DNA of 41,046 nt from Candidatus Margulisiibacteriota bacterium (lineage in GTDB: Bacteria > Margulisbacteria > WOR-1 > JAHJIW01): assembly GCA_041645285.1 (NCBI GenBank), contig JBAZQH010000002.1, forward strand, positions 1 to 41,046, written 5' to 3'. Positions 298-41,046 of the stretch are shown piece by piece. The translations under genes and the position numbers were made by a program. The notes under the pieces were generated by a model, which saw nothing but the letters and a program-made list of their open reading frames with translations, made no database searches and was not told the origin of the DNA. Position 1 is the stretch's first letter, and each line of letters starts with the position of its first letter.

Positions 298-302
298 TTT
301 CG

Positions 303-311: not shown

Positions 312-342
312 TCTCAACAATTATTCGTTTTGGAGAAAAGTT

Positions 343-1266: not shown

Positions 1267-1268
1267 AC

Positions 1269-2689: not shown

Positions 2690-2693
2690 AACC

Positions 2694-3695: not shown

Positions 3696-3696
3696 G

Positions 3697-4421: not shown

Positions 4422-4432
4422 AAGGTGGCCTT

Positions 4433-5038: not shown

Positions 5039-5054
5039 AAAATTAATTTAAAAA

Positions 5055-5528: not shown

Positions 5529-5608
5529 AAGCTCTTTTATCCTTTTCTTTTGGCTTAATTATACTCCATATATTTAAGTAAAGCGAGGCGTCTATACCCC
5601 TGGAGCAA

Positions 5609-5655
5609 GGGCCCGACTGTTTGAGCCCCGGCTGGCCGGGGCGAGTTTCGGGCCC
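5609..5655. other. GC-rich nested inverted repeat (two-tier hairpin) in the ruvC/rnfC divergent intergenic region
   Basis: The outer arms GGGCCCGA (5609-5616) and TCGGGCCC (5648-5655) enclose the perfect palindrome GCCCCGGC-TG-GCCGGGGC (5625-5642). Confidence 0.5.
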
Positions 5656-5666
5656 GAGCGACTCAT

Positions 5667-5695
5667 TTGATGCCCTAACTGCAAAATGATATACT
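5667..5695 (+). promoter_or_regulatory. Sigma70-like promoter of rnfC: TTGATG, 17-nt spacer, (TGa)TATACT
   Basis: The -35 box is at 5667-5672 and the extended -10 at 5687-5695. Only 10 nt separate the -10 box from the ATG, and there is no SD. Confidence 0.45.
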
Positions 5696-5705
5696 CAATC
5701 CCGCC

Positions 5706-7037
5706 ATGCCAAAAACTTTTTCCGGCGGTATCTTTCTTGAAGATCAGAAAAATTTAACCGCCGACAAACCTATCCGCAAGGCCCCGGCTCCCGCCCTTGC
5801 CATCCTTCCGCTCCAGCAGCACGCCGGTTGCCCCGCCGAACCAAAAGTAGCAGTTGGCGCTATGGTGCAAATCGGGCAGTTGATTGGGGACAGTGAAAAA
5901 TTTATTACCGCGGCAATTCATGCTCCCGTTTGCGGCAAGGTCATCGCAATTGATCGCCGCCTGCACCCTAACGGCATTAAATTATTATCTATCGTCATCG
6001 AAAACAGCGGGGAAACAACCGTCCACCCGTCGGTAACACCACCTTTGCCGCCGGAAAATTTATCCCCTGACCAAATCCGCCAAATTGTGCGGCGGGCAGG
6101 GATTGTGGGAATGGGCGGAGGGGCCTTTCCGGCCCACGTAAAACTGACGCCGCCACCCGGGAAAAAAATTGAATCCGTCATCATCAATGGCGCCGAATGC
6201 GAGCCGTATTTGACCGGCGATTACCGGTTAATGCTGGAACAGCCGGAAAATATCCTTTGGGGGCTTTGGGCAGTGATGCAGGCCACCGGAGCCATCCATG
6301 GCATCATTGCAATCGAGGATAACAAGCCCGCCGCGATCCGCGTCCTTTTGCAAACTCTCCAAAACATAACTTTACCGCAAAACCGGCAAAATGACATCCG
6401 GATTGAAATTTTAGCCGCCAAATACCCGCAAGGGTCAGAAAAACAAATGATTAAATCAATCTTAGGCCGTGAGGTCCCTTCCGGAGGCCTCCCCGCTGAT
6501 TCCCATTGCATTGTAACCAATGTCGCCACCGCCGCCACCATTGCCAGTACAATTAAAACCGGCAGTCCCTTAATTGACAGGGTCATAACCGTAAGCGGCG
6601 GAAACATTAAAAACCCCGCCAACCTTTTATGCCGCATCGGCACGCCATTTATTGATTTAATCAACGCGTGCGGCGGCTTTTTGGAAGAACCAACCAAAAT
6701 TATCATGGGCGGGCCGATGATGGGAATTGCCGTGCCGGGTATTGACGTCCCGGTCCTCAAATGTACCACTGGTATCCTGTCCCTTTCAAAAGCCGAAATG
6801 GCGGAATCCTTGGTACAGCCCTGTATCCGCTGTGCACGCTGCGTTGACGCCTGTCCGCAATTGCTCTTGCCAAACCTGCTGGGTGATTTTTCCGAACACA
6901 ACCACCACCCGCAGGCCAAAGAATACGGCGCCCAAGATTGCATAGAATGCGGAATCTGTGCCTATGTTTGTCCGGCTAAAAGAAATTTGGTGCAATTAAT
7001 CAAAGTCAGCAAGCAAGTTATTAATTCTCAGTCATAG
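5706..7037 (+). CDS. rnfC: Rnf electron transport complex subunit C
   Basis: N-terminal FSGGIF...PLQQHAG, the NADH/FMN-binding region GMGGGAFPAHVKL, and two 4Fe-4S motifs (CIRCARCVDACP, CIECGICAYVCP). Confidence 0.9.
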   Translation: MPKTFSGGIFLEDQKNLTADKPIRKAPAPALAILPLQQHAGCPAEPKVAVGAMVQIGQLIGDSEKFITAAIHAPVCGKVIAIDRRLHPNGIKLLSIVIENSGETTVHPSVTPPLPPENLSPDQIRQIVRRAGIVGMGGGAFPAHVKLTPPPGKKIESVIINGAECEPYLTGDYRLMLEQPENILWGLWAVMQATGAIHGIIAIEDNKPAAIRVLLQTLQNITLPQNRQNDIRIEILAAKYPQGSEKQMIKSILGREVPSGGLPADSHCIVTNVATAATIASTIKTGSPLIDRVITVSGGNIKNPANLLCRIGTPFIDLINACGGFLEEPTKIIMGGPMMGIAVPGIDVPVLKCTTGILSLSKAEMAESLVQPCIRCARCVDACPQLLLPNLLGDFSEHNHHPQAKEYGAQDCIECGICAYVCPAKRNLVQLIKVSKQVINSQS

Positions 7038-13382: not shown

Positions 13383-15824
13383 CTAATACAATTTTAGCTG
13401 ATTCAACTGGTTTTTATTGATTGCCGGCGCCAACCCATTTTCCAGTCCCAGCGTTTTAATCATGGTAGTGCTCAAGCCAGTTAAAAAACCGCTCTTCCGG
13501 CCGTAATAGACCAAAATCGGCTCACCGCGGATTTTGGCTATATCTTTGGCAACGTCAACCGCTTTCTGGAAACCGCCCAGTTTGTCAATTAATCCCAAAT
13601 CCAGCGCCTGTTTGCCGGTCAGAATCCGGCCGTCGGCAATGGCTTTAACTTCGGCTGTAGGCAAATCCCTGCCGGACACCACTTTTTGGACAAATTCATT
13701 ATAGGTTTCAAGCTGTAAGGCATGAATTGAAGCCACTTCTTCGCTGGTCAAGGCGCGGATGCCGGAAAACATGTCGGCATACTTTCCTTCTTTTACAATT
13801 TCTTTCTTCACGCCAATTTTATCGTATAAGCCCTGCAGTGCCGGGATTTGGCCGATGACCCCAATACTGCCCGTTATGGTAGCCGGATCCGCCACAATGG
13901 AGTTGGCAGCGCTGGCAATGTAATATCCGCCGGAAGCCGCCACGTCTCCCATAGAAGCCACCACCACTTTGCCTTTTTTGCGCGCTCGCACAATTTCCTG
14001 GTAAATTTGTCCCGCCGCCACCGCCGCCCCGCCCGGACTGCTGATGCGCAAAATTATGGCCTTAACCTGGGGATCGTCCACCGCATTGCGGATATTTTCC
14101 GTAATGGAGTCCGCCCCGGTCGCCTTCCCGCCAAAAAGCAGGTTTTCCCCGCTGCCGCCAAGAGTGATTTCGCCTTCAACCTCCACCACCGCAACCTTGT
14201 TAAAATACGAGAACAAATAATCCTGCAAATCCTTTTCCGCCATTAAATCGTCAGGCCCAATCAGTTTGATATCCTCTTTTGAATCCAAAATTTCTGCCGC
14301 AATCCGGGTCGCATCTTTATAATACCCAATTTCATCCACCAGGCCGATTTTCTTGGCTTCTGCTACCCCAATGATTTGGCCGTCGCCAATATCCTTAATT
14401 TTCGCAATATCAATTTTGCGATCTGCGGCAATATCGGTCAGCATCTGCCGCTGCAAATCAGTGACAATTCCCTGTAAAATCTTTCTCTGCCCTTCGGTCA
14501 AACCGTCTTTATTCATGGAAAAGGTATCTTTATTTTTCCCGATGGCAAATATCTGCCACTCAACTCCCAGCTTTTCGTAAAGGTCTTTGACGCGGGTAAT
14601 TTCAATTTTCCTGGAAAATCCCCCAAACGATGAGCCCTGCGGTGCAATAATCTTATCCGCCACGCTGATTAAGTAATAACCGTCTCCCAGGGCCGAATCC
14701 TCAACGTAGACCACTACCTTTTTCCCTTTGCCCTTAACTTCCTGCAGGGCATCCCGGATTTCCTGCACAATCGCGGTACCGCCCAAGCCCCCGCCAAAAT
14801 CAGAGGCCTTAATCATGACACCGGAAATTCCGCTGTCGCGCGCGGCCCGGCGCAATTTGACAATAATATTTTCCAATCCCTCGCTGTAGCCGCCCAGCAA
14901 ACTGTACTGGGAGCTGCCTCCGGCAACCCCGCCGCGCAAATCAATTTCCACGTATTCTTTGGGCCCAATCAACGACTGCACCCGCTCGGTGTCTTCCCCA
15001 AGCTTCAAACTGCCCCCAAACGACTGGATGGTTCCGGCCGCTCCTCCGCAGTTTTTCATCGCGTAATCAAGCGTCAATCCCAAAATTTGCATTGAGGCGC
15101 CGGCCGTCAAAAATCCCTGGCTGCTACCCACCCTGGCTTTTAACCCCTGGGTAAGCTCCAGTTCCATCCCAAAGTGGGTGAGATTTTCACTGCGGCGGGA
15201 AGAATCAATTTCAAGGTCGCCGGCAAAAATCATGCGGTCCATCAGCGGCAGCAGCGCTACTCCCACCCGCGCCGCAGATGGTGAAACAAAACCGTGCTCC
15301 GACGCAATGTCCTGCCCCACCAAACCGATCGACAACGACGGCATAATTTTAAGGAGAATTCCCAGATCTGCCGACCAACCCTCGCCGTCGCCCGAAGACA
15401 AATTCCAGCGGGCGGTCTTATAATTTACTCCCCACTTAAACCCCCCCGTCCCCTGACTGCCAAACCCGTACATATTAAATGACCCCGACTCCAACGATGT
15501 CGATAACCCGTAACTGGCATAGCCAAAGGGACCGAGTTTTAATAAGTCAAAGCGGCTGTAAGAATAGGTGCGGCGATCCAAATCCGTGTAGCCCAGTGAA
15601 TATTCAAATCCCTGACCCGACATGGCGGCCGGATTATAGAAAATAGCGCTGGCATCACCCTCAATGGCAGTCGCCGATCCCCCCATCCCCATCGCCCTAA
15701 TGCCCATGCCCTGCTTAAAAAGGTCGTCGGTTAAAGTGGCGTAAGCGGGAGAAAAGCAGCTAATAAACAAACAACTAATGACCAATACCTGACAACTAAA
15801 GTTTTTAAATTTTTGCTTTCCCAT
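13383..15824 (-). CDS. sppA: Fusion protein: N-terminal FadL/PorV-like outer-membrane beta-barrel plus tandem S49 signal peptide peptidase (SppA 67K type)
   Basis: Signal peptide, then GIRAMGMGGSATAIEGDASAIFYNPAAM and about 280 aa rich in aromatic/Gly beta-strand pattern. Two S49 domains follow; the second carries the nucleophile motif GDVAASGGYY. SD GGGAGGAAG lies upstream. Confidence 0.8.
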   Translation of the reverse strand: MGKQKFKNFSCQVLVISCLFISCFSPAYATLTDDLFKQGMGIRAMGMGGSATAIEGDASAIFYNPAAMSGQGFEYSLGYTDLDRRTYSYSRFDLLKLGPFGYASYGLSTSLESGSFNMYGFGSQGTGGFKWGVNYKTARWNLSSGDGEGWSADLGILLKIMPSLSIGLVGQDIASEHGFVSPSAARVGVALLPLMDRMIFAGDLEIDSSRRSENLTHFGMELELTQGLKARVGSSQGFLTAGASMQILGLTLDYAMKNCGGAAGTIQSFGGSLKLGEDTERVQSLIGPKEYVEIDLRGGVAGGSSQYSLLGGYSEGLENIIVKLRRAARDSGISGVMIKASDFGGGLGGTAIVQEIRDALQEVKGKGKKVVVYVEDSALGDGYYLISVADKIIAPQGSSFGGFSRKIEITRVKDLYEKLGVEWQIFAIGKNKDTFSMNKDGLTEGQRKILQGIVTDLQRQMLTDIAADRKIDIAKIKDIGDGQIIGVAEAKKIGLVDEIGYYKDATRIAAEILDSKEDIKLIGPDDLMAEKDLQDYLFSYFNKVAVVEVEGEITLGGSGENLLFGGKATGADSITENIRNAVDDPQVKAIILRISSPGGAAVAAGQIYQEIVRARKKGKVVVASMGDVAASGGYYIASAANSIVADPATITGSIGVIGQIPALQGLYDKIGVKKEIVKEGKYADMFSGIRALTSEEVASIHALQLETYNEFVQKVVSGRDLPTAEVKAIADGRILTGKQALDLGLIDKLGGFQKAVDVAKDIAKIRGEPILVYYGRKSGFLTGLSTTMIKTLGLENGLAPAINKNQLNQLKLY

Positions 15825-15836
15825 TCTTCCTCCCGC

Positions 15837-16667
15837 TTACAAACTAACCTTAAATCCAATCATTTGCAGGGCCGGCGCAGACCCGTCGCTACGTGCCGCC
15901 ATTAATGCATACTCAACCGCAACTACGGAAATACTAACCGCCGCTCCCGCAGTCCAGCGATTTTGGTCATAGCCGCCGCGCAACTTGAACCCGGGCGTAA
16001 CAATATTTTCCAGCCCGGCATGCCCGTAAATAGTTGGGCCGGCAGAGGACAGGACATCCCTGAACTCAAAATCAACCGTGCCCACCAATGACGGGAAAAA
16101 GCGGGAAGCAATTCCCACCCGCGCGCTGGCTGGTACTCCCGTATTTTCAATTATATCCTGTAATAATATTCCCCACCGCAAAGTGCGCGAAAAATTTCCG
16201 ATCAAACCGATATCGTAACCGTAGCCGGAACTTTCAGGGGAAGCCCCGCTGGTGTTGATATTTTTATAAGTCATCCCGTAGCTGATGCCGCCGGTTCCCT
16301 GCTTCCCCGCACTGTAAGCAAAAACCTCGGCTTTTTTTCCGGTGGTATCGGTCTTTTTCCAAAAACCATACCCGAACGAATTGGCGGCAAAAAAAGTATG
16401 CTCAAAATCGGTGCTTTCACGGTAATTCAGGTCGTTGTAGCCCTTTAAAAAACCGATTCCCTGCAGCGCCAGTCCCGCCGGGTTATAAAATACCGCGGAA
16501 GGATCATCCGCCAGTGCAGTAAAGGCGCCGCCCATCGAAGCCGCCCGCAACCCGACGCCGTTTTTCAAAATCGCCACCAATAAATCATCCGCCGCCCAAA
16601 CTAAATTTGAGAGCGCTAAAAGAAGTAATAAGGTCAGTACCGTTTTCTTGAACACCGCTTTCCTCAC
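15837..16667 (-). CDS. FadL/PorV-like outer-membrane beta-barrel protein (276 aa)
   Basis: Signal peptide (..LLLLLALSNLVWA), then GLRAASMGGAFTALADDPSAVFYNPAGL. The body shows alternating Gly/aromatic beta-strand character and ends in ..IGFKVSL. GTG start. It lies 12 nt upstream of the barrel-SppA gene. Confidence 0.6.
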   Translation of the reverse strand: MRKAVFKKTVLTLLLLLALSNLVWAADDLLVAILKNGVGLRAASMGGAFTALADDPSAVFYNPAGLALQGIGFLKGYNDLNYRESTDFEHTFFAANSFGYGFWKKTDTTGKKAEVFAYSAGKQGTGGISYGMTYKNINTSGASPESSGYGYDIGLIGNFSRTLRWGILLQDIIENTGVPASARVGIASRFFPSLVGTVDFEFRDVLSSAGPTIYGHAGLENIVTPGFKLRGGYDQNRWTAGAAVSISVVAVEYALMAARSDGSAPALQMIGFKVSL

Positions 16668-21806: not shown

Positions 21807-24800
21807 TCACCTGCTCCTCACTACTACTAACTTACCTTTATACAAAATCTGCCGATGCGTCAGGTCAATTACCCGATATGGGAACAATCCGTTGCCAATC
21901 AAACTGCCAAATTCGTTTACGCCGTCCCAGGAAACTGCATTGTTTCCTTCCTGCCCTTCAAAAATGATGGATTTAATCAGGCGCGCATTTTCATCATAAA
22001 CGCTGATTTGGATTTGGGTGGCCTCGCTTAAGCCAACCAAAAAAGTAATAGGATTAACTGATGGGTCAGACGGGTTGGGATACACATACCCTTCCGCCAA
22101 AGCTTCGGTTATAATATTAAATGTTTCCGTGGCTTCGTTGCCGGCAAGGTCTCGGGCAGTGATGGTCACGGGAGTGGTGCCGGTGCCAATTTGCGCTGAA
22201 CCTAAAGTGGTGTAGCGGATATCATAAGCATTTGAACTAGTATTGGCCGTATCGGAATTGGCACCCGCCGAATTAACCGGCGCAGCCGAGGCCGCCACGC
22301 TCAATGCCGCCCCATTGTTAATTTTGATGTTTATATCAGAGCTGGAAATACCTGACCCGGAATCAGTGATACTGGCATAAATAACCGGGCTGGAAGAATG
22401 GATTACTCCCAAATTAACCACGCCATCGGTACACTCAACCGCATCCACCTTGATGCTATCGATAACCGGAGCGTTTTGGTCAATGGAAAAACTAAACGGC
22501 ACAATTTCACTAAGGTTCCCCGCCCAATCAACCGCGTAAACGCTGTACGTAAAACTTCCGTCTTCGGTAATCGTAACTACCGTTGCATCATCCGCTATTT
22601 CAACGGCGGTACCGTTAGCGGTAGTATATACAATTTTTGCTATACCCGAACCTGTATCCGAGGCCTCAAGATTGACGATCACTTTTGAGCGGTAATAACC
22701 GTTATTCCCCTCAATTCCCAACACCGTGGCGCTGACCAGCGGCGGCTCACTGTCCGGGATTGCGCTTACCCGTACATTCCAACTTGCACTGGCGCTGTCG
22801 CCAAATTGGTCGGTCACAATTAAGGTTATCTGCGCATCTCCTGCCGTGGTTGCGGTATAAACTACCTGTGCCGGGTTGGTGGAAGAAGAAGTTATTCTGC
22901 CGGCGGTGGTAGACCAGAAATAATTAAGTGCATCTCCGTCCGGATCGTAAGCCGCCACGGTAAATCCGGGCTGGGCGCCAACCGTAAATACTTGATCGCC
23001 TTCTGGGGCGCACGCAGTAATGATTGGCGCACGGTTGGTGTTATTTACAACCAAAATAAATTCTTCGGTTGCAACGTTCTCGCCGTCTGATACCAAAACC
23101 TGCAAAGAGTAAACGCCGCTGGCGTCATAGGGAAGCGGGCTCGTAGTGCTCATGACGCCGTCGCCGGAAATTGTCAGCCAGGACGGATGATTAAACAAAC
23201 TGTAAGATAAAACGTCACCATCTGCGTCGCTGGCCACAACACTATACTGGAAAGTTGCCGCCTCGGTGGCAGTAAGCGTTCCAATGGTTTCGATTTCCGG
23301 CGGTTGATTAGCATGCGGCAGATCATTGTCGGCCGTAACGTTTATGGTAATCACGCCAGAATCTGTGCCGCCGTTGCCGTCATTCACCTGGTACCCCAAC
23401 AAATCTGTTCCGAAATAATTTGCGTTGGGAGTATAGATATAATCCGCGCCGCCGTTGACCGCAACCACCGAACCATCAGCCGGCAAACTATAGATAGAAT
23501 ACGACAACGTATCACCATCTGGATCCGAGCCCGGCAAAGTGAATGTCACCGGCGTATCTTCAGCAGTTGTCACGATTGCATCTGATGCAACCGGCGCATG
23601 GTTGATCGTGCTGACAACAATTTCAAACGACTGGGTAGCTTCCGCCTGCCCATCATTTACGGTCAATTTAAGTGGATAAATGCCCGGATCCATCGGTGTT
23701 CCGCTCAATGTGCCCGTGCCATCACCGTTATCACTAAACGTCAACCAATTGGGCTTGTCAACTGCAGACATTAATAATGTATCTGCATCCACATCTGCGG
23801 CAATAACCAGATAGGTATACAAGTCCATCGTGTAAGCCACCGTAACCGGAACGCTGGTAAACTCCGGCGCATCATTGACCGCAGCAATGGTTATGGTTAC
23901 CGTAGCCGTCCTGGATACTACATCACCATCCGTTGCCAAATATGTGAATGAGTCGTCGCCGTTATAACTTGCGGACGGAGTATAAGTAAGATTGGGTGCG
24001 GTGCCGCTTAAAACTCCATGTAATGGCGGTTCGTAATGGTAGGTTAAAACCGCACTGTCAATATCGGAGCCAATCAATAAAATAGGTACTGGGGCCTCCT
24101 CACCAGTACTTACGGAGATATCGCTCGCCACTGGCGGATCATTTACCGGGTTAATTTTTACTGTTACTTCTGCGGTGGCAGACCCCCCCTGGCCATCTTC
24201 TACCAAATAGATAAATCTTTCATTGTCCCCGTACCAATCCTGGTTAGGGGTATAAATAATTGTGGTTTCGCTTTCCAGGGGACCATCGGGAAGGACAAAT
24301 ACCGCAGCGCCATGCACCGGCACTGTTAAAAAGGAATACTGTAAAACATCCTCGTCCGGATCCCACGCAGACACAACTTGCGCAGTTGGAACATCTTCAA
24401 CTCCCGCCAGGGAACATCGCAATGCGATCGGGGCATTATTAATATTCTTTACCGTGACGGTAAATTGCCGGCTAACCGTAGCAGTATTTGAGCCGTCCCG
24501 CAAGGTTATATAAAAAGAATACGCCGTATCTTCAGAAACCGACGGTGCCGTACCGGAAATTGTGGCGGTCTTATCTCCATTGTCAGTTAATGTCAGCCAG
24601 GACGGTAATCCGTCGCTCCCAATTCTTAAGGTATCCCCGGCATCGACATCATCAGCAGTGACGGTCGCGGCATAAGCCGCCAACTCATTAACCGAGGGCA
24701 GCGCAGTGGTAACAAAGGTCGGGTCATCGTTTACTGCATTGATTGTAATATTTATCCGAACTTCAGCATATTGAGAACCTTTATCCCCGCCGGTAAAAAC

Positions 24801-25103
24801 CCTAACAACAAAAGAATCTGATCCATAGTAATTTGGTCCAGGAGTATAAGTAATCTTTGTATTAGTAGCATCTACCGCAAAGGTACCTTTGGTTGGGCTA
24901 GAAACGGTTGCGGAATAATAGACGGATGAAGGTAGCCCACTGGCTTGAGCTAAGTCCGATTGTGATATTTCTACCGCAACATCTTCATTGGTCGTTTTAT
25001 TAATATCTGCCGCCAAAGCCGGCGAGGAAAAAACAGCAGTAAAAATACCCAAACAGGCAATACTTAATACTAACGTTCTTGAGATTTTTAATCTTCTAAA
25101 CAT
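21807..25103 (-). CDS. Large secreted adhesin: alternating cadherin-like/tandem-95-type and He_PIG (dystroglycan-type) Ig repeats, further Ig-like domains, and a C-terminal T9SS-CTD/FlgD-Ig-like domain
   Basis: The ATG at 25103 gives the signal peptide MFRRLKISRTLVLSIACLGIFTAVFSSPALA and is preceded by a GAGG SD. Repeat ends recur: VNDDPTF, INNAPIA, VNDPPVA, VNDAPEF, INHAPVA, NTNRAPI. The motif LPSWLTLTDNGD..ISGT occurs three times. The tail is YPNPSDP...QISVYDENARLIKSI...VSWDGVNEFG..GLFPYRV...KLVVVR. Confidence 0.8.
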   Translation of the reverse strand: MFRRLKISRTLVLSIACLGIFTAVFSSPALAADINKTTNEDVAVEISQSDLAQASGLPSSVYYSATVSSPTKGTFAVDATNTKITYTPGPNYYGSDSFVVRVFTGGDKGSQYAEVRINITINAVNDDPTFVTTALPSVNELAAYAATVTADDVDAGDTLRIGSDGLPSWLTLTDNGDKTATISGTAPSVSEDTAYSFYITLRDGSNTATVSRQFTVTVKNINNAPIALRCSLAGVEDVPTAQVVSAWDPDEDVLQYSFLTVPVHGAAVFVLPDGPLESETTIIYTPNQDWYGDNERFIYLVEDGQGGSATAEVTVKINPVNDPPVASDISVSTGEEAPVPILLIGSDIDSAVLTYHYEPPLHGVLSGTAPNLTYTPSASYNGDDSFTYLATDGDVVSRTATVTITIAAVNDAPEFTSVPVTVAYTMDLYTYLVIAADVDADTLLMSAVDKPNWLTFSDNGDGTGTLSGTPMDPGIYPLKLTVNDGQAEATQSFEIVVSTINHAPVASDAIVTTAEDTPVTFTLPGSDPDGDTLSYSIYSLPADGSVVAVNGGADYIYTPNANYFGTDLLGYQVNDGNGGTDSGVITINVTADNDLPHANQPPEIETIGTLTATEAATFQYSVVASDADGDVLSYSLFNHPSWLTISGDGVMSTTSPLPYDASGVYSLQVLVSDGENVATEEFILVVNNTNRAPIITACAPEGDQVFTVGAQPGFTVAAYDPDGDALNYFWSTTAGRITSSSTNPAQVVYTATTAGDAQITLIVTDQFGDSASASWNVRVSAIPDSEPPLVSATVLGIEGNNGYYRSKVIVNLEASDTGSGIAKIVYTTANGTAVEIADDATVVTITEDGSFTYSVYAVDWAGNLSEIVPFSFSIDQNAPVIDSIKVDAVECTDGVVNLGVIHSSSPVIYASITDSGSGISSSDINIKINNGAALSVAASAAPVNSAGANSDTANTSSNAYDIRYTTLGSAQIGTGTTPVTITARDLAGNEATETFNIITEALAEGYVYPNPSDPSVNPITFLVGLSEATQIQISVYDENARLIKSIIFEGQEGNNAVSWDGVNEFGSLIGNGLFPYRVIDLTHRQILYKGKLVVVRSR

Positions 25104-26923: not shown

Positions 26924-27991
26924 ATGATTATTAAAACCCTGGACTCACTGCTAAACCAGGCAATTCAACTAAACGCCAGCGATCTCCACTTTGAGCCGCA
27001 AAAAAACGGCGCGGTGGTACGCATCCGCATTGACGGACTTTTGCAGGAAGCATTAAAAACCAACAAAGAAACATTAGTCCCGCTCATTTCACGCATCAAG
27101 GTCTTGTCACATTTGGACCTGGCCGAAAAACGTCTGCCCCAGGACGGCCGCATCTTCATGGAAATTGAAGGACAGCGGGTTGACCTGCGCATTTCCACCC
27201 TCCCCACCATTTACGGCGAAAAAGCCGTCATCCGGATTTTAAACCAAAACTCGCTGGTTAAATCCCTGGTGGAGATAAAAATGCCGTCTTTGGAACACGC
27301 CGCTTTCTGCCGGATGCTGGCTAAAAAGCACGGTATAATTCTGGTTTCGGGCCCCACGGGGAGCGGCAAAACCACCACGCTTTACGCCGCACTGCAAAAA
27401 TTAAATCAAACCGCAGTAAATATCATCACCATTGAGGATCCAGTTGAATATTCACTGGACGGCATCAGCCAAATCCATGTCAATGAAAAAATTGGCATGA
27501 CATTTGAGCGGGGATTACGCGCAATCTTGCGGCAGGATCCGGATATCATCATGGTTGGAGAAATCCGCGACAGAGAGACCGCCCGCATCGCCATCACCGC
27601 CGCACTGACCGGACATTTGGTCCTATCCACCATCCACACCAACGATTGCATCTCCTCAATCAGCCGGCTGGTTGATATGGGAATTGAGCCGTATTTAATT
27701 GCTGGAGCGCTGGTGGGGTTGGTGTCACAACGATTGGTTAGGAAATCCACGGCCACGACATCGGGCGGCGTCTCCGTCCCGCCGCCAACTGCCTGCGGCC
27801 GCCAGGCAATTTTTGAAGTGTTGGAAATTGATGAGGAACTGCGCGGGCTTATCACCCGTGCCGCACCAAAGGATAAGCTCACCACATCGGCGCAAGCCCG
27901 CGGCATGCGGTCGCTTTTGGAAAATGGCTTGGCGCTATGCTCCAGCGGCACAGTAGCCAGGGAAGAATTAAGCCGGGTTTTAAGTGAGTAA
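26924..27991 (+). CDS. Minimal GspE/PilB-family secretion/type IV pilus ATPase (about 355 aa, N2 plus ATPase domains only)
   Basis: AEKRLPQDGRI (N2 domain), Walker A GPTGSGKTT, Asp box TIEDPVEY, Walker B DPDIIMVGEIRD, His box GHLVLSTIHTND. I prefer the ATG at 26924 over the TTG at 26900. Confidence 0.8.
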   Translation: MIIKTLDSLLNQAIQLNASDLHFEPQKNGAVVRIRIDGLLQEALKTNKETLVPLISRIKVLSHLDLAEKRLPQDGRIFMEIEGQRVDLRISTLPTIYGEKAVIRILNQNSLVKSLVEIKMPSLEHAAFCRMLAKKHGIILVSGPTGSGKTTTLYAALQKLNQTAVNIITIEDPVEYSLDGISQIHVNEKIGMTFERGLRAILRQDPDIIMVGEIRDRETARIAITAALTGHLVLSTIHTNDCISSISRLVDMGIEPYLIAGALVGLVSQRLVRKSTATTSGGVSVPPPTACGRQAIFEVLEIDEELRGLITRAAPKDKLTTSAQARGMRSLLENGLALCSSGTVAREELSRVLSE

Positions 27992-33472: not shown

Positions 33473-33526
33473 CAGGGGATGGGGCTCAGCGCATTATAAA
33501 GAGCCGTATAACGTGCCGTTTAATAC
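33473..33526. repeat. Direct repeat copy A (partial copy of the giant-gene terminator 3' half plus flank), abutting the 3' end of the AAA ATPase gene
   Basis: The core AAAGAGCCGTATAACGTGCC (33498-33517) matches 34759-34778 at 19 of 20 positions. Flanks show weaker similarity (CAGGGG..TGGG.C..GC.CA..). Confidence 0.5.
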
Positions 33527-34680
33527 TGCTGGATTGCGCGCAAAAGTTCCTGCGGGGAAAGAATTAAGATTTTATCGATTTTTTGCGGAATGGTTACGGG
33601 AGCCGCTATATAACAAGGGATTTCTGGATGGGTTGCATGCAGAGCTCGCACCCCGGATAAATCTGCCGCGGAAATGCTTTTTTTGAATTTACACTCTACG
33701 GCAAACAGCTTTTTTTTGCCGCGTTCCACAATCAAATCCACTTCTGCGCCGTGGCCAGTCCTCCAAAAAGACAAGCGCCAATCTTTTGCCGCGTATTGAT
33801 TTAGGCGATATATTTCCTGGATAATCCATTGCTCAAATAGGCGGCCTTTTTCTAGTGAACTCGGCTTATCTTGCAAGGTACCCAGGAGAGCACGCACAAC
33901 CCCGTTATCAAAAAAGTAAAATTTTGGACTATGGCTCATGCGCTTGCGTTCGCTTTTTAGGCAAGGGTAAAGAAAAAAGCCCATCAGCGTGTCTTCCAGG
34001 ATTGAGTAAAACTCACGGACGGTGGCGTAAGCCACGGCACATTGCCGCCCTAAATCCGAAAAATTAACCTGTTCGGCAAATTGCGCAGCGGCCACATCAA
34101 GAAAATTTTGAAATCCCTGTAAATTCCTAACCAACGCTTCGGACTTAATTTCCTCACGGAGATACGTAGTAATGTAGGAACGCAAAAAATCTTGTGCCAA
34201 TTTTTCTTTACGCTGAAGGAGAAATCCCCAAATTTTAGGTAATGAGCCATAACGCAAAACCGTTTCTAACGCAAAGTATTTGCCTAATTCTGCCTGGGTT
34301 AGCGGGTGCATGGTACGGTAAAGCGCCCTTCCGCCCAAAAGGTTGGCGGCGCCGTGGCGGAGCTTGCGCGCGCTGGAGCCAGAAAGGATAAATTTTAAAT
34401 GCGGATATTTTTCTATTAAAGAATGAATAACATCCAGTAGTTTCGGCACCTTTTGGATTTCGTCGATCAGAACAATGCCTTTTTTGCGCGGCAGGGCATC
34501 GACTTGCTTGGACAACAATGACGGATCTTTAGAGTAAAGCAACTGCGTATCTGGCTCCAACATATCTACCGCAAAAAGGGTGTTTATTTTTTTAAGCAGC
34601 GTAGTTTTACCTACTTGACGCGGGCCAAAAAGAAACAGATTTTCACCAGGCAAATTATCTTCCAAATAGCGCTTAAACAT
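33520..34680 (-). CDS. AAA-family ATPase of the AAA_14/DUF4143 type
   Basis: Walker A GPRQVGKTT, Walker B VLIDEIQ, and a C-terminal region (..FYFFDNGV.., ..VDLIVE..) as in DUF4143 proteins. The ATG at 34680 (MFKRYLE..) sits directly behind a sigma70-like promoter. Confidence 0.8.
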   Translation of the reverse strand: MFKRYLEDNLPGENLFLFGPRQVGKTTLLKKINTLFAVDMLEPDTQLLYSKDPSLLSKQVDALPRKKGIVLIDEIQKVPKLLDVIHSLIEKYPHLKFILSGSSARKLRHGAANLLGGRALYRTMHPLTQAELGKYFALETVLRYGSLPKIWGFLLQRKEKLAQDFLRSYITTYLREEIKSEALVRNLQGFQNFLDVAAAQFAEQVNFSDLGRQCAVAYATVREFYSILEDTLMGFFLYPCLKSERKRMSHSPKFYFFDNGVVRALLGTLQDKPSSLEKGRLFEQWIIQEIYRLNQYAAKDWRLSFWRTGHGAEVDLIVERGKKKLFAVECKFKKSISAADLSGVRALHATHPEIPCYIAAPVTIPQKIDKILILSPQELLRAIQQY

Positions 34681-34687
34681 AGTTGAT

Positions 34688-34716
34688 AATATACACGGTA
34701 TTCTATCAACGTGCAA
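34688..34716 (-). promoter_or_regulatory. Sigma70-like promoter of the AAA ATPase gene: TTGCAC, 17-nt spacer, TATATT
   Basis: Minus-strand reading. The -10 box ends 7 nt before the ATG at 34680, and there is no SD. Confidence 0.45.
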
Positions 34717-34731: not shown

Positions 34732-34787
34732 CAGGGGGGTTGGGCGCGGCACAAACCAAAAGAGCCGAATAACGTGCCTGTTAGAAC
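34732..34787. repeat. Direct repeat copy B (includes one arm of the terminator hairpin), upstream of the AAA ATPase promoter
   Basis: The core AAAGAGCCGAATAACGTGCC (34759-34778) has the same orientation as copy A. The two copies bracket the ATPase gene and its promoter. Confidence 0.5.
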
Positions 34788-34798
34788 GTTACCGGCTC
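34750..34798 (-). terminator. Rho-independent terminator downstream of the giant gene
   Basis: On the minus strand, GAGCCGGTAACGT, a 10-nt loop and ACGTTATTCGGCTC form 6+6 bp with a small internal loop. The tail TTTTGGTTTGTG follows. The stem begins 18 nt after the stop codon. Confidence 0.55.
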
Positions 34799-34815
34799 TA
34801 ATTCAATACAAAATA

Positions 34816-37800
34816 TTAAGATCGAACTACATCCGGGATACTTCTTAAATAATCAATCAAAGCGACGTCAACACCATAAAGATTACCCGCATCAGGTAAA
34901 TCAAAGTAAGCATCTGAATAGCGCCCATTTGGTCGTGCTAAAATTTCAGCCTCCCGATCTCTAAGTAAATTCACTAAAGCGGCTTGGACTGAAGCTGCCG
35001 TTAAGTTGCCCTCGTCATCAGCTGGCATATATCCTTTATCGAATAATAATCTGGCCAGCCCATTAAGCACCAATCCATGTTCTTCTAAATTGGCAAAGCT
35101 TACCTGACGATCTCCGCCCAGCACTGCGCGGCTTTCCGCAATATCATCTAAAGTAAGAATTGAAGCAAAATCACTCGCCGTCATTCCTTGCCTAAGCGCT
35201 TGCATGGCCGGGGCAAAATGGCGGTTATTTCTTCTTATTTCCCCTCTATCATTTGAAAAGCCAGCGCTAATATCAGCTGCTTTGGGCACATAGATTCCAG
35301 CACGGCTTTCAACAATGATTTCAGCTATGCGGTGAACTGTCACCATCTCGTCAATTACATTCTTAATAAATAATTGCCTGGTCTTCCCGTTTTCTTCAAT
35401 CATCAACATGCCGTGGTCATAGGCCCATGTCATCAAAGCTGCGGATGGGCGATACGCAACTACGGCTGCCGGGTCATCAACATCTAAATTAATCAATTCG
35501 TCCGGCATTTGCATATAATTTCCGCCGGCCTGTTTATAAAGTTTTGCAAATGCCTGCCATTCTTTAAAAATTGCTCGTTGCGCTGGATCCTGAAGCATGG
35601 ATGCTAAAACTTCCTTCAAAGCTTCATTGCCGGCACTGGTCTTAACATCTAGCCCGTTATCAACCATCGCGGCAAATAAGGCCTGGCCAAACATGGTTAA
35701 CAATGCGCCATCAATCACGTCTGCTTGCTGGCGGTCCATTTCTCTTACCGTATCGGCAAACTGTGAACCGCGGGATGTTTTGGTTACCGCCGCTGAGCCA
35801 AAAGTATTGGTCATCCAGTTTAAACTTTGGGCAGTTCGAGCCATTGCTCCAGTTTGTTGGCTGATCCAATTGTCATACATTAATGCACTACGGTCATAAA
35901 CCGAACGATCATACGCATCCAGGGCTAAATGATTAACTCCTTCGGCTCCAAGGCCGGTAATAAAGTTAACAAAAGCAAAAGCACCTAACGCCCTGCCTGC
36001 GTACGCCAACCTGCCCTTCGGCAACAGGTTAAGTCCCCAGTTTTTCTGAGCCAAATTTGCCCCGAGCTTATACAAATCAGGTACAAAGAACGCTGCCAAA
36101 CCGCCCGCCGCATGAATAGAACTTCCTTTTTCAATACCTAAAACGTCGGCGGCAATATTCCAGCCTGCTACCGCCGCGGTACCCGGACCAAGCATTTCAG
36201 CCAAATTCAACATTTGTGTCCAAGATTTCAATTTGGTTAAATCTTTCAATGCTTTAGCAATTTCGGCTCTTTCGCCAATTACAATTGCCTCAGTTAATCC
36301 TGCCATTGCTTTATTAACCGGATGGAGCGTGACTAAAACCAAACCAAAACTTACGGCAGGGTTAATGTCCGGGCAGGCAAAATGCAATGCTCTTTCAACT
36401 AAAAGCATGCCGCCTAAACCAATTAACATATTTATCGCCCCGGCTCCAGCTCTCAAATTATTCAAACGGATAACTTCGGTTTTTATTTCCACTGCCTTTG
36501 TTTCTGATACACTAAATAATTGTGCAATTTCTGCCGGAGTCATTTTTGAGATACCGCTCGCTAAACGTGCTTCAATTGCAGCTAGCCTTTCCGGAGTTAA
36601 GCTGCGGAGTTGCATCTCAACCACATCAGCAACACCACGCCCATACTTCGAGGTTAAATGCTCCCTTACGGTCATTGCTGCATCGGGAACAACCGCATCC
36701 GTGTCCAAACCAGTTAATCTTTCTGACCTAATTGCTGAACCAGAAGCAGCCTTTCTAGGATCAGGCACATCTCTAACCATTAATGGCCGAGTTTTTGGCC
36801 TTACATCAACTGCCGGTTGGCCGTGATCAACCGAATCCGGATTGCCGGTTACGGTTGCCCAATTAGTCGGCGCTGGGCTGGCTGATTTGGCCGCTTCTCT
36901 CGCACGAGCACTTTCCGCTAACTTTGCATCAACCGCCGCAGTGCCTTCAACCGATGAACCGTCACTAATTAAAACTTCTTGGCGTAATGGTGCGGCTGTG
37001 CGCGGAGCAGTATCCTCTGGCGTCGGACGTGCTTCTACATTAGCCAAAGCGCTGGGAACGGTTGTCGCTTCTTTATTACTTGTTACTGGACGGCTGCGAT
37101 ACTTCCAGAGATGATGTCCGGATAAAACGGTAGCACTAACCGGATCCGCCACAAAACGCGCATCTGCTGGTTGATTAGGATAAAATCTAAATCCGTCCTT
37201 AATTCTAACAAGCTTACCGACAGCATGCCCTGCTGAATCATAAGCAACATGTCCACCCCTAGAAGTTGCTTCCGGACGATAATAAATAGGTTCGGATAGC
37301 CCTTGCACACGAACCTCTCGCCAACTGTTAGCTGTTGCTGCCGGCGCTGCCGCAGGTTTTGGTGCTGGGGCGGGAGTGGATGGCGGCCGTGAAGATGTCC
37401 CGGCCGGCCCAGAACTAGTTGAACCAGAAGGCGCAGCTGGCGTGGTTCCAACGGGACGTCCAACCCGATAACGCGCCCCGCGGGTTGCTTGTTTCCTGAT
37501 TTTTTGCATGCCCATTGGATCGGTTTGCGCGTTCTGGGTAATCGCTTGATATAAGGGAGAAACACCTTCCGGGGGAACGCCATAGCGGGCAAGAAAAGCA
37601 TCAACAATCCTTTGCTGCTGCCATAATCTCAATCGGGCAATTTTCCCTAATTTTCTTCCAGCTTTTTGTGCCGCCTGCTCCCTGGCTTTTAATGCATTAT
37701 ATTTTTGGAAGTCGCGTGCCGCTTTTTCTAGATCGAGTTCCCGCTTATTTTCATGATCAGGTGCTAAATCTGCTACCAAGGCAACTAACTGTTTTCCCGA

Positions 37801-40800
37801 TATTTCAACTGGAACCGGCGTGGCTGCGTTGCCTAAATCAAATCTGTACCCTCGGTCAAGCGCTTCTCCTCTGCCCCACCGCTCCGCCTCCCTTGCCAAT
37901 GAAAAACTGGCCGGAGCCGGCGGCACGGGAACCCACTCCATATTGCGGGTCGCTTCCCTGAATCCCGCAAAACTATCCCACAATTCCTGTATGGTTCCAA
38001 ATTCTCCGGAAAAGTTTCGGGTAGGGTTGTTTGTGTTATATTCCTTGATCGCTCTGGAAAATTCTTCAAGAGTTTGACATTGTGCTAATTTCGCCAGCGT
38101 TTCACCTGAAATCACAAAAGTGCGTTTGGCTTGGGGCATGGACTGGATTGCTTTTCCAACCGGCATTCCTACCTCCAATGCCCGACCCTTTAAAGTCTGT
38201 GATGCTCGCGCAAATTCGGGACGATTATCAAAATAAACGTTGTGGCCTGATTTTTCGGCGTAATGTCCTTCAAGTTGGCTAATCTCTGCCTGAATAACCG
38301 TGCGGCGAGATTTATCGGTAGTATTGCTTAATTCACCATATTTCCTTTCAATTTCTCTCATAACGGACAATAAATATTCCGGTTTGGCTTCGTAGAAATC
38401 ATAACCGGTGCGGCGGGTATATTCTCTTTCCAGCTCCCTTAATTGCACATATTGCTCGGCCTGAACACGGCTTAACCTTTCGACTTCTGGCCCATTTTTA
38501 GTTGCTTCAGCAACCGCAATGTCAGTTTCGCGTGCTACGATTTCTTCCAGTAAAACAGGAATTCTCTTCTCTAACGCACGGGCCTCTGCTCCTCCTCTAA
38601 CTGCGGTAACGCTGAATTCAGCAGCTGGATCCAATTGCGCGCGCAATAAAACCAAATCCTGCAAAGTTGGCTGTAGCCCCAAATAATTCGTCAGCCCGGC
38701 AGCTTTTCGTTCTATTTCAGCAGAGACAGCATTCGCATCACCCGTAACCGTTCCCGCAGTTGAGCTAGTTGCCGGCGTCGAACCTTTACTTAAAGCTTCC
38801 CGCACTCCCTCCAATCCATTTGCCACAACGGCATCCATCCACCTCCCCACCCCGTCGCCAACCACCCGCCATCCCGCTTCTGCGGCATAATCGTATCCTC
38901 TTCCCGGCAGTTCTCCGGCTCGCCCTGGTAAATTAACGGCGTCCACGCCGCGGTTATAAATGCGATCCAACCGCCCTTCCGCAGTTTCCGGAACATCCGG
39001 CAATACTTCGCCGCGGCTTGCCAACGGTTCAATTTCTAATGCAAGACCACTGCCTCTTCTTTCCTGAGCCGCCATCCGGCTCTCGACAATCGACTCATAA
39101 ATACGCGGGGCCTCCAAAATTAATCCGCCATGTGAATAGTAACCGATTTTAATACCTGTTCCCATGTGCTCCTTCGGAACACCACCTACTCTTTTTACTC
39201 CACCCCTCCCACGCAAGCCCTCCCTGACAACGGTAACATCTCGGTACCTACCAAGTCTCTTCCCCTGGTTAATTCCTAGTTTTCTCCACAATGTCTTATC
39301 CACCCAAACCGCCCCGTTCTTAATTCGGACTGCGCCGCTATCTTTGGCATGCGCCATTAGTTGCGGCATACTCTTGAAACTTTGTACAACAAACTTCATG
39401 ATTACCGCCAGTTTGGCAATACCTTCTTTATAGCGCCCCTGTTTGAAGTCCTCAAATATTGAATCAATAAACACAAAACCAAAGGTTTCAAAAACCAAAA
39501 ACGAACCGCCGGTCTTGCCTAACCCAGAGAAAAACCGTTCCAGCCCCTCATAATATTTACCTTGGGCAAATAAAGCAGGCGCGGTGGTCCACATGTCCAC
39601 AAAGCCGGTTTTAATTGAGGTTCCCATCAATATCTTAAATTGGGAATAGGCCTGTACATAAGATTTTGCGCCCTTCCACACGAAGTCGCCTGATTCCACC
39701 AAACCAACCCACAGGTAATCAGTAAATGATTCACAATTGGCCCAAGTTTCTTCCCAGGATTCGCCCATGTCCGTCCAAACGTCATCAATCGTTTCAAATG
39801 TATCTCCCCAGTATCCGTTAACATAAGGCAAATATTTCAACAACGGCATTTCTTTTGCTTCAGAAGCAACCGCATAGTCAGCCGGATTATGTTCCGTATC
39901 CAATCGAACCGAAGCAATGAGGTGCGGCGCTTTTTCGCTGCCGGTGGCAATGCGCATGGTATCCGCAGGGTTAAAATAGGTAATCGGCATATCTTCCGAG
40001 CTATAAATCCCGGCGGCACGGTTTTTTTCACCAACAATCGCCAAAACATCTTCTAAAACCTGCGCTAAATACACCAATTCGTCCCCAATATCACCAGCGC
40101 TGCCGTCATACATCTTCTCCTGGCTAATTGAATCATAAAGCGGCACGCGCAATTTTTCATTTTCTGCAAGCTCATATAAAACCTGCAAATATTCATCCGC
40201 GGATAGCGTTCCATTAATCAATCCAGCAATATCGGTCTTGAATTTTCCTATTTCGGCCAGGTGCAAAAGGCGCTGTTTTAAAAAAGGATTTTCCTTGATC
40301 GCGGGCAGCAATTCGGTTTCAAGATACTGCGCAAACGCCTCAATATCTTTGCCAACCACCACGTCCATAACATCCGGATCATCGGGTTGGCGCGCAGCCT
40401 GGACGCTAATTTTACGGTCAAGATATTTTTGCCCCGCGGTGGAGCCAACCATAATTGAATGCAGCTGCGAAGCATAATTTTGCGGCATGTACATATCGGA
40501 AATCATCGCTACCCAAGACGCAGCCGAATACCAGGCACTCAAAAACGGATTATTAACAAAACTCTCAACTTCCGGAAGATTATCCGGCCCAATTTCAATT
40601 TCGCCCAAGCCCAAAATCTTTGTGCCAATGGCAGTTAAATCGCGCGCGGAATGAAATATCCCCTCCATCCTCCCCCCGCGGCCAAAAAGTAAATTGGGCC
40701 CGGCAACAAACACGTTAAAATGCAGCTGGCGGGGAATTTCCTCGAAAACCTTGGATAGCGCTGCCTTAGCTAACGTAGCGGATTCGCTTTCGCCGGGAGC

Positions 40801-41034
40801 CACCAGAGAAGACATCATCGATATGGTGCCTCCTTGGCTAAAATAATCTTCTAAAACCCGTAGGGCGGTTTTTTCAACCGCGTGTCCTTCGCCATCATAA
40901 ATTACACCCACTGGGGTGCCAGAAAGGGACTTAAAAAACCGCATCAGCCCACCGCAAACCGACTTATTACTTAAAGTCGGCAATCTTTCTATCATCCGGT
41001 CATAGCTTTCTTTATCAAAAACGTCGCTCATCAA
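34816..41034 (-). CDS. Giant hypothetical protein (at least 2071 aa); N-terminus uncertain because the frame is still open at the window edge
   Basis: A single uninterrupted 6.2-kb ORF whose only competitors are short shadow ORFs on other frames or strands. I recognise no catalytic motif and no signal peptide. It has a central coiled-coil-like region, a Pro/Ser/Thr/Ala linker, and several hydrophobic Gly-rich segments in the C-terminal third. Confidence 0.75.
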   Translation of the reverse strand: MMSDVFDKESYDRMIERLPTLSNKSVCGGLMRFFKSLSGTPVGVIYDGEGHAVEKTALRVLEDYFSQGGTISMMSSLVAPGESESATLAKAALSKVFEEIPRQLHFNVFVAGPNLLFGRGGRMEGIFHSARDLTAIGTKILGLGEIEIGPDNLPEVESFVNNPFLSAWYSAASWVAMISDMYMPQNYASQLHSIMVGSTAGQKYLDRKISVQAARQPDDPDVMDVVVGKDIEAFAQYLETELLPAIKENPFLKQRLLHLAEIGKFKTDIAGLINGTLSADEYLQVLYELAENEKLRVPLYDSISQEKMYDGSAGDIGDELVYLAQVLEDVLAIVGEKNRAAGIYSSEDMPITYFNPADTMRIATGSEKAPHLIASVRLDTEHNPADYAVASEAKEMPLLKYLPYVNGYWGDTFETIDDVWTDMGESWEETWANCESFTDYLWVGLVESGDFVWKGAKSYVQAYSQFKILMGTSIKTGFVDMWTTAPALFAQGKYYEGLERFFSGLGKTGGSFLVFETFGFVFIDSIFEDFKQGRYKEGIAKLAVIMKFVVQSFKSMPQLMAHAKDSGAVRIKNGAVWVDKTLWRKLGINQGKRLGRYRDVTVVREGLRGRGGVKRVGGVPKEHMGTGIKIGYYSHGGLILEAPRIYESIVESRMAAQERRGSGLALEIEPLASRGEVLPDVPETAEGRLDRIYNRGVDAVNLPGRAGELPGRGYDYAAEAGWRVVGDGVGRWMDAVVANGLEGVREALSKGSTPATSSTAGTVTGDANAVSAEIERKAAGLTNYLGLQPTLQDLVLLRAQLDPAAEFSVTAVRGGAEARALEKRIPVLLEEIVARETDIAVAEATKNGPEVERLSRVQAEQYVQLRELEREYTRRTGYDFYEAKPEYLLSVMREIERKYGELSNTTDKSRRTVIQAEISQLEGHYAEKSGHNVYFDNRPEFARASQTLKGRALEVGMPVGKAIQSMPQAKRTFVISGETLAKLAQCQTLEEFSRAIKEYNTNNPTRNFSGEFGTIQELWDSFAGFREATRNMEWVPVPPAPASFSLAREAERWGRGEALDRGYRFDLGNAATPVPVEISGKQLVALVADLAPDHENKRELDLEKAARDFQKYNALKAREQAAQKAGRKLGKIARLRLWQQQRIVDAFLARYGVPPEGVSPLYQAITQNAQTDPMGMQKIRKQATRGARYRVGRPVGTTPAAPSGSTSSGPAGTSSRPPSTPAPAPKPAAAPAATANSWREVRVQGLSEPIYYRPEATSRGGHVAYDSAGHAVGKLVRIKDGFRFYPNQPADARFVADPVSATVLSGHHLWKYRSRPVTSNKEATTVPSALANVEARPTPEDTAPRTAAPLRQEVLISDGSSVEGTAAVDAKLAESARAREAAKSASPAPTNWATVTGNPDSVDHGQPAVDVRPKTRPLMVRDVPDPRKAASGSAIRSERLTGLDTDAVVPDAAMTVREHLTSKYGRGVADVVEMQLRSLTPERLAAIEARLASGISKMTPAEIAQLFSVSETKAVEIKTEVIRLNNLRAGAGAINMLIGLGGMLLVERALHFACPDINPAVSFGLVLVTLHPVNKAMAGLTEAIVIGERAEIAKALKDLTKLKSWTQMLNLAEMLGPGTAAVAGWNIAADVLGIEKGSSIHAAGGLAAFFVPDLYKLGANLAQKNWGLNLLPKGRLAYAGRALGAFAFVNFITGLGAEGVNHLALDAYDRSVYDRSALMYDNWISQQTGAMARTAQSLNWMTNTFGSAAVTKTSRGSQFADTVREMDRQQADVIDGALLTMFGQALFAAMVDNGLDVKTSAGNEALKEVLASMLQDPAQRAIFKEWQAFAKLYKQAGGNYMQMPDELINLDVDDPAAVVAYRPSAALMTWAYDHGMLMIEENGKTRQLFIKNVIDEMVTVHRIAEIIVESRAGIYVPKAADISAGFSNDRGEIRRNNRHFAPAMQALRQGMTASDFASILTLDDIAESRAVLGGDRQVSFANLEEHGLVLNGLARLLFDKGYMPADDEGNLTAASVQAALVNLLRDREAEILARPNGRYSDAYFDLPDAGNLYGVDVALIDYLRSIPDVVRS

Positions 41035-41046
41035 ACGGCTTTTTAG

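Follow-up and report, generated by a model that had tools for sequence, protein, structure and literature searches.

The last 6.2 kb of a 41,046-bp stretch of DNA (the window) from a Candidatus Margulisiibacteriota bacterium (assembly GCA_041645285.1, contig JBAZQH010000002.1) consist of one giant open reading frame (ORF) on the minus strand, and the locus raises the question of what kind of protein this frame encodes. A first-pass annotation made from the letters alone had described it as an ORFan and had likened its layout, speculatively, to that of large effectors or toxins that are translocated and possess a pore-forming region for delivery. The analysis presented here indicates, on sequence evidence, that the frame is the C-terminal fragment (the last ~60%) of a protein of ~3,400 aa. 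The protein belongs to an apparently undescribed, very fast-evolving family that is nearly confined to one class of Margulisbacteria (the Saganbacteria/WOR-1 type), and its hydrophobic C-terminal module, designated C1, seems to be shared with protein kinases of the same class.

The ORF list and the translation agree that the frame runs without interruption from position 41046 to a stop codon at 34816-34818, through 2,076 codons, and that it is still open at the end of the window. The probability of meeting no stop over 2,076 codons, computed from the base composition of the frame, is ~1e-52. Because the window corresponds to the entire contig (C2 of assembly G000, which comprises 1.52 Mb in 121 contigs and is 89% complete), its open end coincides with a genuine end of the assembly. 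Each peptide cited in the first-pass annotation was found, and in the order given there: EQYVQLRELEREYTRR (residues 864-879 of the fragment), REIERKYGEL (897-906), a Pro/Ser/Thr/Ala linker (1201-1237), GAINMLIGLGGMLLV (1536-1550), AVSFGLVLVTL (1564-1574), GGLAAFFVP (1648-1656) and ALGAFAFVNFITGLG (1686-1700); the tail after this hydrophobic block comprises 346 aa. The gene also appears to possess a terminator of its own, as had been proposed: an intrinsic-terminator-like hairpin with a U-rich run just past the stop codon. The corresponding 70-nt stretch folds as RNA with -22.3 kcal/mol, and it was missing from the list of a simple pattern scanner owing to its long loop.

To place the missing 5' part of the gene, we compared the fragment with its full-length relatives. 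In all of them, the segment homologous to residues 1-640 (module A) sits 1,100-1,900 residues into the protein, with ~1,400 residues preceding the homologous start point, and the apparent start of the fragment, LMSDVFDK, matches an internal motif of the relatives (L-x-S-D-R-F-D). Since both module A and this motif are internal in the relatives, ~1,400 residues are missing from the frame on C2. The N-terminal 1,400 residues of two relatives gave no match in a first search of the genome under study; a later local tblastn, using the N-terminal parts of seven relatives, matched contig C82 (6,571 bp) of the same assembly. This contig carries an 835-codon frame that begins with a Met codon, runs off the first base of the contig and is collinear with residues ~190-780 and 866-1081 of the relatives. 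The suspicion that the true N-terminus lay beyond the window was therefore correct, and the start codon region could be traced to C82. The gene directly upstream of this frame is 35% identical to the 1,161-aa gene that precedes the giant of an orthologous locus (protein P0003, see below). On account of this match and of the collinear alignments, the fragments on C82 and C2 are judged to be two parts of one gene whose estimated full length is ~3,400 aa; the ~500 residues between them are unassembled and were not found in the assembly.

The upstream gene is a constant companion of the giant. A co-oriented gene of 900-1,220 codons precedes it in 9 of the 9 loci for which upstream sequence was available, C82 included, and some copies of this partner gene are homologous to one another. 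No signal peptide was detected in any full-length member or at the start on C82. The earlier statement that the protein lacks a signal peptide was drawn from a fragment whose true N-terminus is off the contig; it agrees nevertheless with the candidate start on C82 and with the full-length relatives. Across the assembly, 32 frames, counted from stop to stop, reach 1,000 codons or more and together make up 8.9% of the 1.52 Mb. Because many of them touch contig ends, very large genes seem to be a main cause of the breaks in this assembly.

The extent of the family was determined with six-frame searches and iterated profiles. A six-frame search of 40 related genomes recovered giant frames, 2,355-3,719 codons long, that matched residues ~30-554, within module A, and in some cases also residues 1460-2075; the relatives are labelled Candidatus Saganbacteria or Candidatus Margulisiibacteriota, and BLAST E values between the window protein and the giants of its relatives ranged from 1e-26 to 1e-58. 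A module A profile of ~590 positions, which scores 701 bits on the window protein, retrieved 39 matches from 1.84 billion representative proteins, 32 of them at E <= 1e-30 and nearly all 2,000-4,400 aa long, with the window protein (P0002) ranking fourth. Module A was detected in 19 of the 65 genomes of the class and in none of the 81 genomes from elsewhere in the phylum, and C1 in 22 of the 65 and in one of the 81; some of the C1-bearing genomes encode giants of ~3,000 aa in which module A is not detectable. Giants with C1 only occur in G007, G011, G023, G030 and G057. The designation as an ORFan thus does not hold in the strict sense, since relatives exist, although almost exclusively within one bacterial class. 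Most genomes carry a single copy and a few carry two or three. In genome G047, two family giants lie in tandem on contig C3 (3,109 and 2,784 codons; G047:C3:4718-6313 and 14676-16406) and a third is located on another contig. The isoelectric points of the members span 4.7-10.3. Like the other members, the window protein has module A in mid-protein, the order A-B-C1-tail and a partner of 900-1,220 aa encoded upstream.

None of the searches for known domains connected these proteins to a described family. Scanning the whole fragment with hmmscan against Pfam-A and NCBIfam (E <= 1) returned no known family, and Pfam analysis of the giants of ten relatives (seven plus three) found no toxin or other domain family. 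All members of the module A and C1 alignments, scanned at E <= 10, showed no recurring weak family, and PADLOC and PHROGs gave nothing usable for the window protein and its relatives. Sequence and profile searches of the PDB produced nothing significant for the whole protein, for module A or for the last 646 residues, and when the whole fragment or residues 1-640 served as query in a word-indexed homolog search, only the window protein itself was retrieved. Accordingly, the first-pass annotation was right in recognising no enzymatic motif or known repeat family, as none is recognisable in the Pfam, NCBIfam, PADLOC and PHROGs scans, and sensitive profiles did not place the protein in a well-described family such as RHS/YD, MARTX or LCT, whose domains were not found. 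As far as these profiles reach, the family is new and without detectable relation to any described one. The name "peptidoglycan hydrolase-like" that IMG gives to member P0010 was not reproduced by Pfam.

Residues 408-560 give a single weak PHROG match (E = 0.0024), to a family of tail length tape measure proteins, which raises the idea that the giant is a tape-measure-like protein left behind by a phage or another mobile element. We consider this highly improbable. When the whole fragment was searched by tblastn, neither the 50,697 phage records nor the 72,556 plasmid records yielded a match, no phage genes occur in the window or in the syntenic locus, and the ortholog P0003 has no PHROG match; moreover, the matched part is a hydrophobic helix pair, whose composition alone can produce such scores. 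The housekeeping context of the gene and its chromosomal synteny, which extends across families, likewise speak against such an origin.

Structure prediction gave models of low confidence. AlphaFold2 reached a pLDDT of 49 for residues 1-640 (alignment of 6 sequences) and of 44 for residues 1431-2076 (2 sequences), and Foldseek comparison of these models with the PDB was uninformative (E > 0.8, TM-scores ~0.1). The proposed check of segments with AlphaFold and Foldseek therefore returned no match, from models that are too poor to test the fold. Residues 1-640, previously described as part of ~700 aa of mixed alpha/beta character, are nearly all helix in the low-confidence model. The protein as a whole is probably alpha-helical nearly throughout, and it is probably not an enzyme.

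Iterated profiles revealed a module order common to the members, namely an N-region, module A, module B, a Pro/Ser/Thr linker, C1 and a variable tail (Table 1). Module A starts with L-x-S-D-x-F-D and contains the motifs PGE..T.AK.ALSK.FE.LPR, GEIN, LTYFDP and LMP..IA.GF, as well as a hydrophobic GSFLVFE helix pair. Fifteen of its positions are conserved in at least 80% of 33 members; Gly, Pro and hydrophobic residues predominate at them, the others being Gln, Asp, Asn, Thr and Glu, and no His, Cys, Ser or Lys is among them. Overall, neither in module A nor in C1 do the conserved residues resemble a catalytic site. Residues 641-1200 form the charged middle region and contain the core of module B, which the iterated profile found in 27 family members, always after module A. 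The linker region yielded no homolog by iterated profile. C1 occurs in 20 family members, always near the C-terminus, and the acidic tail that follows it, C2, is ~40% identical in P0003 and in a 1,356-aa ORF of genome G001, with partial matches in three other members. No internal repeats were detected by self-comparison of the window protein.

Table 1. Modules of the giant protein and associated features. Residues are numbered from the first residue of the fragment; coordinates refer to the window unless contig C82 is indicated.
Feature	Residues or size	Position	Strand	Remarks
Giant gene, first part	835 codons	contig C82 (L030) 2-2506	-	
Partner gene	1,220 codons	contig C82 (L030) 2516-6175	-	no Pfam domain; directly upstream of giant, same strand
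N-region	~1,400 aa	off-contig		weakly conserved among relatives
Giant gene, C-terminal part	2,076 codons + stop	34816..41046	-	5' side cut by contig end
Module A	1-640	39127..41046	-	family-defining; in all members
Module B core	~937-1138	37633..38238	-	BLAST to P0009, P0006, P0031, P0015
Pro/Ser/Thr/Ala-rich linker region	1201-1430	36757..37446	-	composition table; non-conserved
Pro/Ser/Thr stretch quoted in the first-pass annotation	1201-1237	37336-37446	-	
Module C1	1477-1727	35866..36618	-	~five helices, hydrophobic, Gly-rich
First helical hairpin of C1	1533-1576	36319..36450	-	uncharged Gly-rich helix, 13-residue acidic loop, second helix starting NPAVSFG
Variable acidic tail C2	1731-2076	34819..35856	-	pI 4.8
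Intrinsic-terminator-like hairpin		34750..34799 (approx.)	-	stem ~14 bp, U-rich tail, 17 nt past stop
AAA_14/DUF4143 ATPase		33520-34716	-	directly downstream of giant gene

The C-terminal region of the window protein retrieved a syntenic ortholog, P0003, a hypothetical protein of 3,509 aa from a Candidatus Margulisbacteria genome that is ~40% identical to the window protein over the last 650 residues. In the P0003 locus, argC-argJ-argB are followed by a 287-aa gene, the 1,161-aa gene, the giant itself, clpC, radA, plsC, pilT, aroE and a Big_9 adhesin, and the gene order in the window is the same from the giant onward. The giant is a single-copy chromosomal gene, and its position among housekeeping genes is conserved. 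Between the two loci, the orthologs on its flank share 70-82% identity, whereas the giants can be aligned by BLAST only over the last 650 residues; because of this difference, the giant gene is considered to evolve far faster than its neighbours. The middle of P0003 could still be joined to module A by hhalign, with a probability of 93.7%.

C1 holds the segments that the first-pass annotation had listed as candidates for membrane insertion. That proposal stands in so far as they form a conserved and probably membrane-embedded module, but in the window protein itself the segments are only moderately hydrophobic, with Kyte-Doolittle 19-residue maxima of 1.4-1.7. Elsewhere in the family, helix 1 reaches a value of at least 1.6 in 12 of 21 members and the last helix is transmembrane-grade in 8 of 21. 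Helix 1 is essentially uncharged across 20 members. The mean net charge, calculated for 20 distinct members, is +2.5 for the 17-residue stretch that leads into helix 1, -1.5 for the loop and +4.7 for the stretch following helix 2, a pattern that would fit the positive-inside rule for a hairpin having both ends in the cytoplasm (N-in).

A different view of C1, as a diverged aquaporin-like (MIP) half-channel forming a pore in the cell's own membrane, arises from the PDB search with the C1 profile. Its only matches up to E = 10 were aquaporins (16 of 16, best E = 0.014), covering a 46-residue stretch in which a helix and a short loop lead to an NPA half-helix, in each of the two halves of aquaporin-1, and the window protein reads INPAVSFG at the aquaporin-like place. 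However, the E values per stretch were 2.4 and 53 and hence not significant, only around half of the members retain Asn-Pro, and the Pfam MIP model (PF00230) was absent both from the protein itself and, in a six-frame search, from all 31 genomes of the class that were covered (G000-G030, giants included), with a control that was positive in 9 of 14 reference genomes. After this failure of the MIP model, the aquaporin matches were rejected as evidence of membership, and we attach very little credence to a half-channel.

Outside the giants, C1 recurs in Hanks-type Ser/Thr kinases, where it directly follows the kinase domain; such kinases were found in four genomes belonging to the class. In a 533-aa protein of genome G034, the Pkinase domain spans residues 51-295, and residues 301-446 align to the C1 profile (A5), with E = 2.5e-4 by hmmsearch and E = 1.8e-5 and 78% probability by hhalign. 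This kinase tail matches the giant of the same genome (E = 1.3e-14) and the giants of G047 and G011. In G011, G007 and G019 it also matches frames that are 655-705 codons long and that all have a Pkinase domain just upstream, in the same frame. The C1 of the window protein scores 323 bits against profile A5, a non-independent value because the profile includes its own sequence. Through the family profile, a link that is indirect but consistent, the C1 of the window protein would be homologous to the region following Pkinase in the Hanks-type kinases of the class.

In these kinases the side N-terminal to C1 should be cytoplasmic, since a kinase domain needs ATP and works in the cytoplasm. Because C1 appears homologous to this post-kinase region, a cytoplasmic location for the bulk of the giants is the most economical reading. 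We therefore favour, at what we would call an even chance, a mostly cytoplasmic, all-helical giant that is tethered to its own membrane via C1 and that probably acts together with the partner protein. In such an arrangement, C1 would be a helical-hairpin anchor in the cytoplasmic membrane of the cell, with its N-terminal side in the cytoplasm. The ~2,900 signal-less residues that precede it (N-region, A and B) would hang in the cytoplasm as a membrane-tethered helical scaffold, which would probably work with the partner of ~900-1,220 aa.

Several observations weigh against a cytoplasmic scaffold. The C1 helices of the window protein itself lie below the usual transmembrane threshold (1.51 and 1.41). 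The connection of its C1 to the kinases passes through the family profile, with no direct pairwise match and an hhalign probability of only 78%, and the two kinases of its own genome lack C1. A distant member, P0041 (2,405 aa, on a 149-kb IMG contig), has a LysM domain (residues 1624-1667) directly before a C1-like module (1687-1940); because LysM is normally extracytoplasmic, the N-terminal side of that protein would be outside. The rapid divergence of the family and its range of isoelectric points would be more usual for surface or conflict proteins than for cytoplasmic scaffolds, and the structural models, at the pLDDT values given above, are too poor to test the fold.

Some of these observations would suit an extracytoplasmic envelope or surface protein, exported without a signal peptide (for example by a type I-like route via TolC) and held by C1, whose fast evolution would result from exposure to phages, hosts or neighbours. 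Consistent with this, the neighbouring Big_9/cadherin adhesin diverges as fast as the giant (29-34% identity, versus 70-82% for the housekeeping neighbours), three TolC-like genes are present in the genome, LysM adjoins C1 in P0041, and one member is labelled peptidoglycan-binding by IMG, a label that Pfam did not reproduce. Margulisbacteria are, in addition, rich in very large genes and proteins (10.1101/2023.11.21.568195; PMC11573180). On the other hand, no Ig-like, cadherin, beta-helix or RTX repeats (including HemolysinCabind) were detected, the ten giants analysed had no Pfam match, and no ABC transporter or membrane-fusion genes accompany the gene in the window or in the syntenic locus. 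Furthermore, C1 follows cytoplasmic kinase domains and its charge pattern places the N-terminal flank inside. We regard an envelope location as unlikely, albeit the most probable of the alternatives.

The effector or toxin proposed in the first-pass annotation, in which the hydrophobic block would be a pore-forming delivery region acting on a target membrane, accords with the giant size, the lack of a signal peptide, the moderately hydrophobic Gly-rich hairpins and the variability of the tail among relatives. With ~1.5-2 Mb, the genomes of this lineage are small and could also fit a partner-dependent lifestyle, although this is inference only. The analogy was nevertheless not borne out. Neither RHS/YD, MARTX or LCT domains nor any toxin, protease, glycosyltransferase, ADP-ribosyltransferase or other catalytic domain were found with Pfam and NCBIfam, no immunity-like gene follows the giant, and neither the window nor the syntenic locus has secretion genes near it. 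Searches of the genome, which is 89% complete, returned no TssC or VirB4, and the single export-gate gene detected, of the FlhA type (FHIPEP), is probably flagellar. A single-copy gene at a conserved housekeeping position, with a C1 module that also occurs on kinases and conserved residues that do not look catalytic, likewise speaks against this proposal, which we consider improbable.

Beyond the tethered scaffold favoured here, C1 could be a new membrane-embedded interaction module through which the giants and the Hanks-type kinases meet in the membrane. This extension is speculative and, in our estimate, has only a slim chance of being correct. If it were true, the ~3,400-residue giant would make up, together with the partner of ~1,200 aa, a platform beneath the membrane that is specific to the lineage and regulated by kinases. 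Such a platform would be the bacterial equivalent of a signalling scaffold or a cortical cytoskeleton, consisting entirely of folds unseen before.

A further protein with part of C1 is encoded in the genome under study, on contig C12 (14410-15477, plus strand). It comprises 356 aa, with a small head, a proline-rich linker, the last C1 helix, a Y-x-R-S-V motif and the start of the tail, and it matches the giant of genome G012 (E = 1e-17) and the window protein (E = 6e-4).

Regarding the neighbourhood, a DUF4143 ATPase gene also lies directly downstream of the giant in genome G004 (L021:16790-17989), which belongs to a different family of the same class. The two ATPases are 66% identical, the corresponding giants only ~26%, and a second copy of the ATPase, 28% identical, is located on contig C8 of the genome under study. 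The ATPase was rejected as a regular functional partner of the giant, being absent from the syntenic ortholog locus and from 10 further giant loci. The syntenic relative (L027) carries ORF6N-domain genes between radA and plsC (24575-25084) and between pilT and aroE (27019-27537), both of which are absent from the window.

These results turn an apparent orphan into a defined family: its full length is estimated, its modules follow a fixed order, a partner gene accompanies it throughout, its taxonomic range is narrow and its C1 module is shared with kinases. This definition provides a starting point for structure prediction from deep alignments and for tests of topology and interaction. In practical terms, the frame at the contig end should be annotated neither as a complete gene nor as a toxin. 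Margulisbacteria are the closest non-photosynthetic relatives of Cyanobacteria and, to our knowledge, no member of the Saganbacteria type has been cultured.

Among known systems, the giants resemble the large clostridial toxins (LCT), MARTX and RHS/YD toxins in size, in the lack of a classical signal peptide and in having an internal, moderately hydrophobic helical region; they differ in that no defining domain, catalytic domain, autoprotease, repeats or immunity gene was found. The defining Pfam domains without a match are the glucosyltransferase, TcdA/TcdB pore region and C80 autoprotease of the clostridial toxins, the repeats and cysteine protease domain of MARTX, and the RHS/YD repeats with their RHS core. 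Outside the PVC group, Margulisbacteria are listed among the phyla in which very large genes are frequent (10.1101/2023.11.21.568195) and are enriched in huge proteins that have no functional (COG) assignment (PMC11573180); neither paper describes the present family. Like the products of the Omnitrophota "giant genes" and the proteins of the "huge proteins" survey, its members are very large, lineage-restricted and without assigned function. The proteins treated in those papers, however, range from >5,000 to >30,000 aa, span the membrane many times and contain SecA-like, dockerin or peptidase domains, whereas the giants described here have ~3,000-3,700 aa, one hydrophobic module and no recognised domain.

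With respect to C1 itself, the bilobed unit of two helices (~18 and 13 residues) separated by a 13-residue loop, with positive outer flanks, is in its layout reminiscent of the hairpins of chlamydial Inc proteins and of reticulon-type proteins. The Inc hairpin is known from the literature, and Inc proteins are type III-secreted into the membrane of the host vacuole; nothing in the case of the giant indicates secretion or a host. The comparison with the Hanks-type (PknB-like) Ser/Thr kinases of the class (533-705 aa; G034, G011, G007 and G019) goes further, because there C1 appears homologous to the stretch that follows Pkinase, and both kinds of protein have a large signal-less N-terminal part before it. 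PknB-type kinases typically have a single transmembrane helix, whereas the C1 of the giant has ~five helices. In the giant, ~2,900 residues take the place of the kinase domain, and C1 is followed by the variable tail rather than by PASTA or another known sensor domain.

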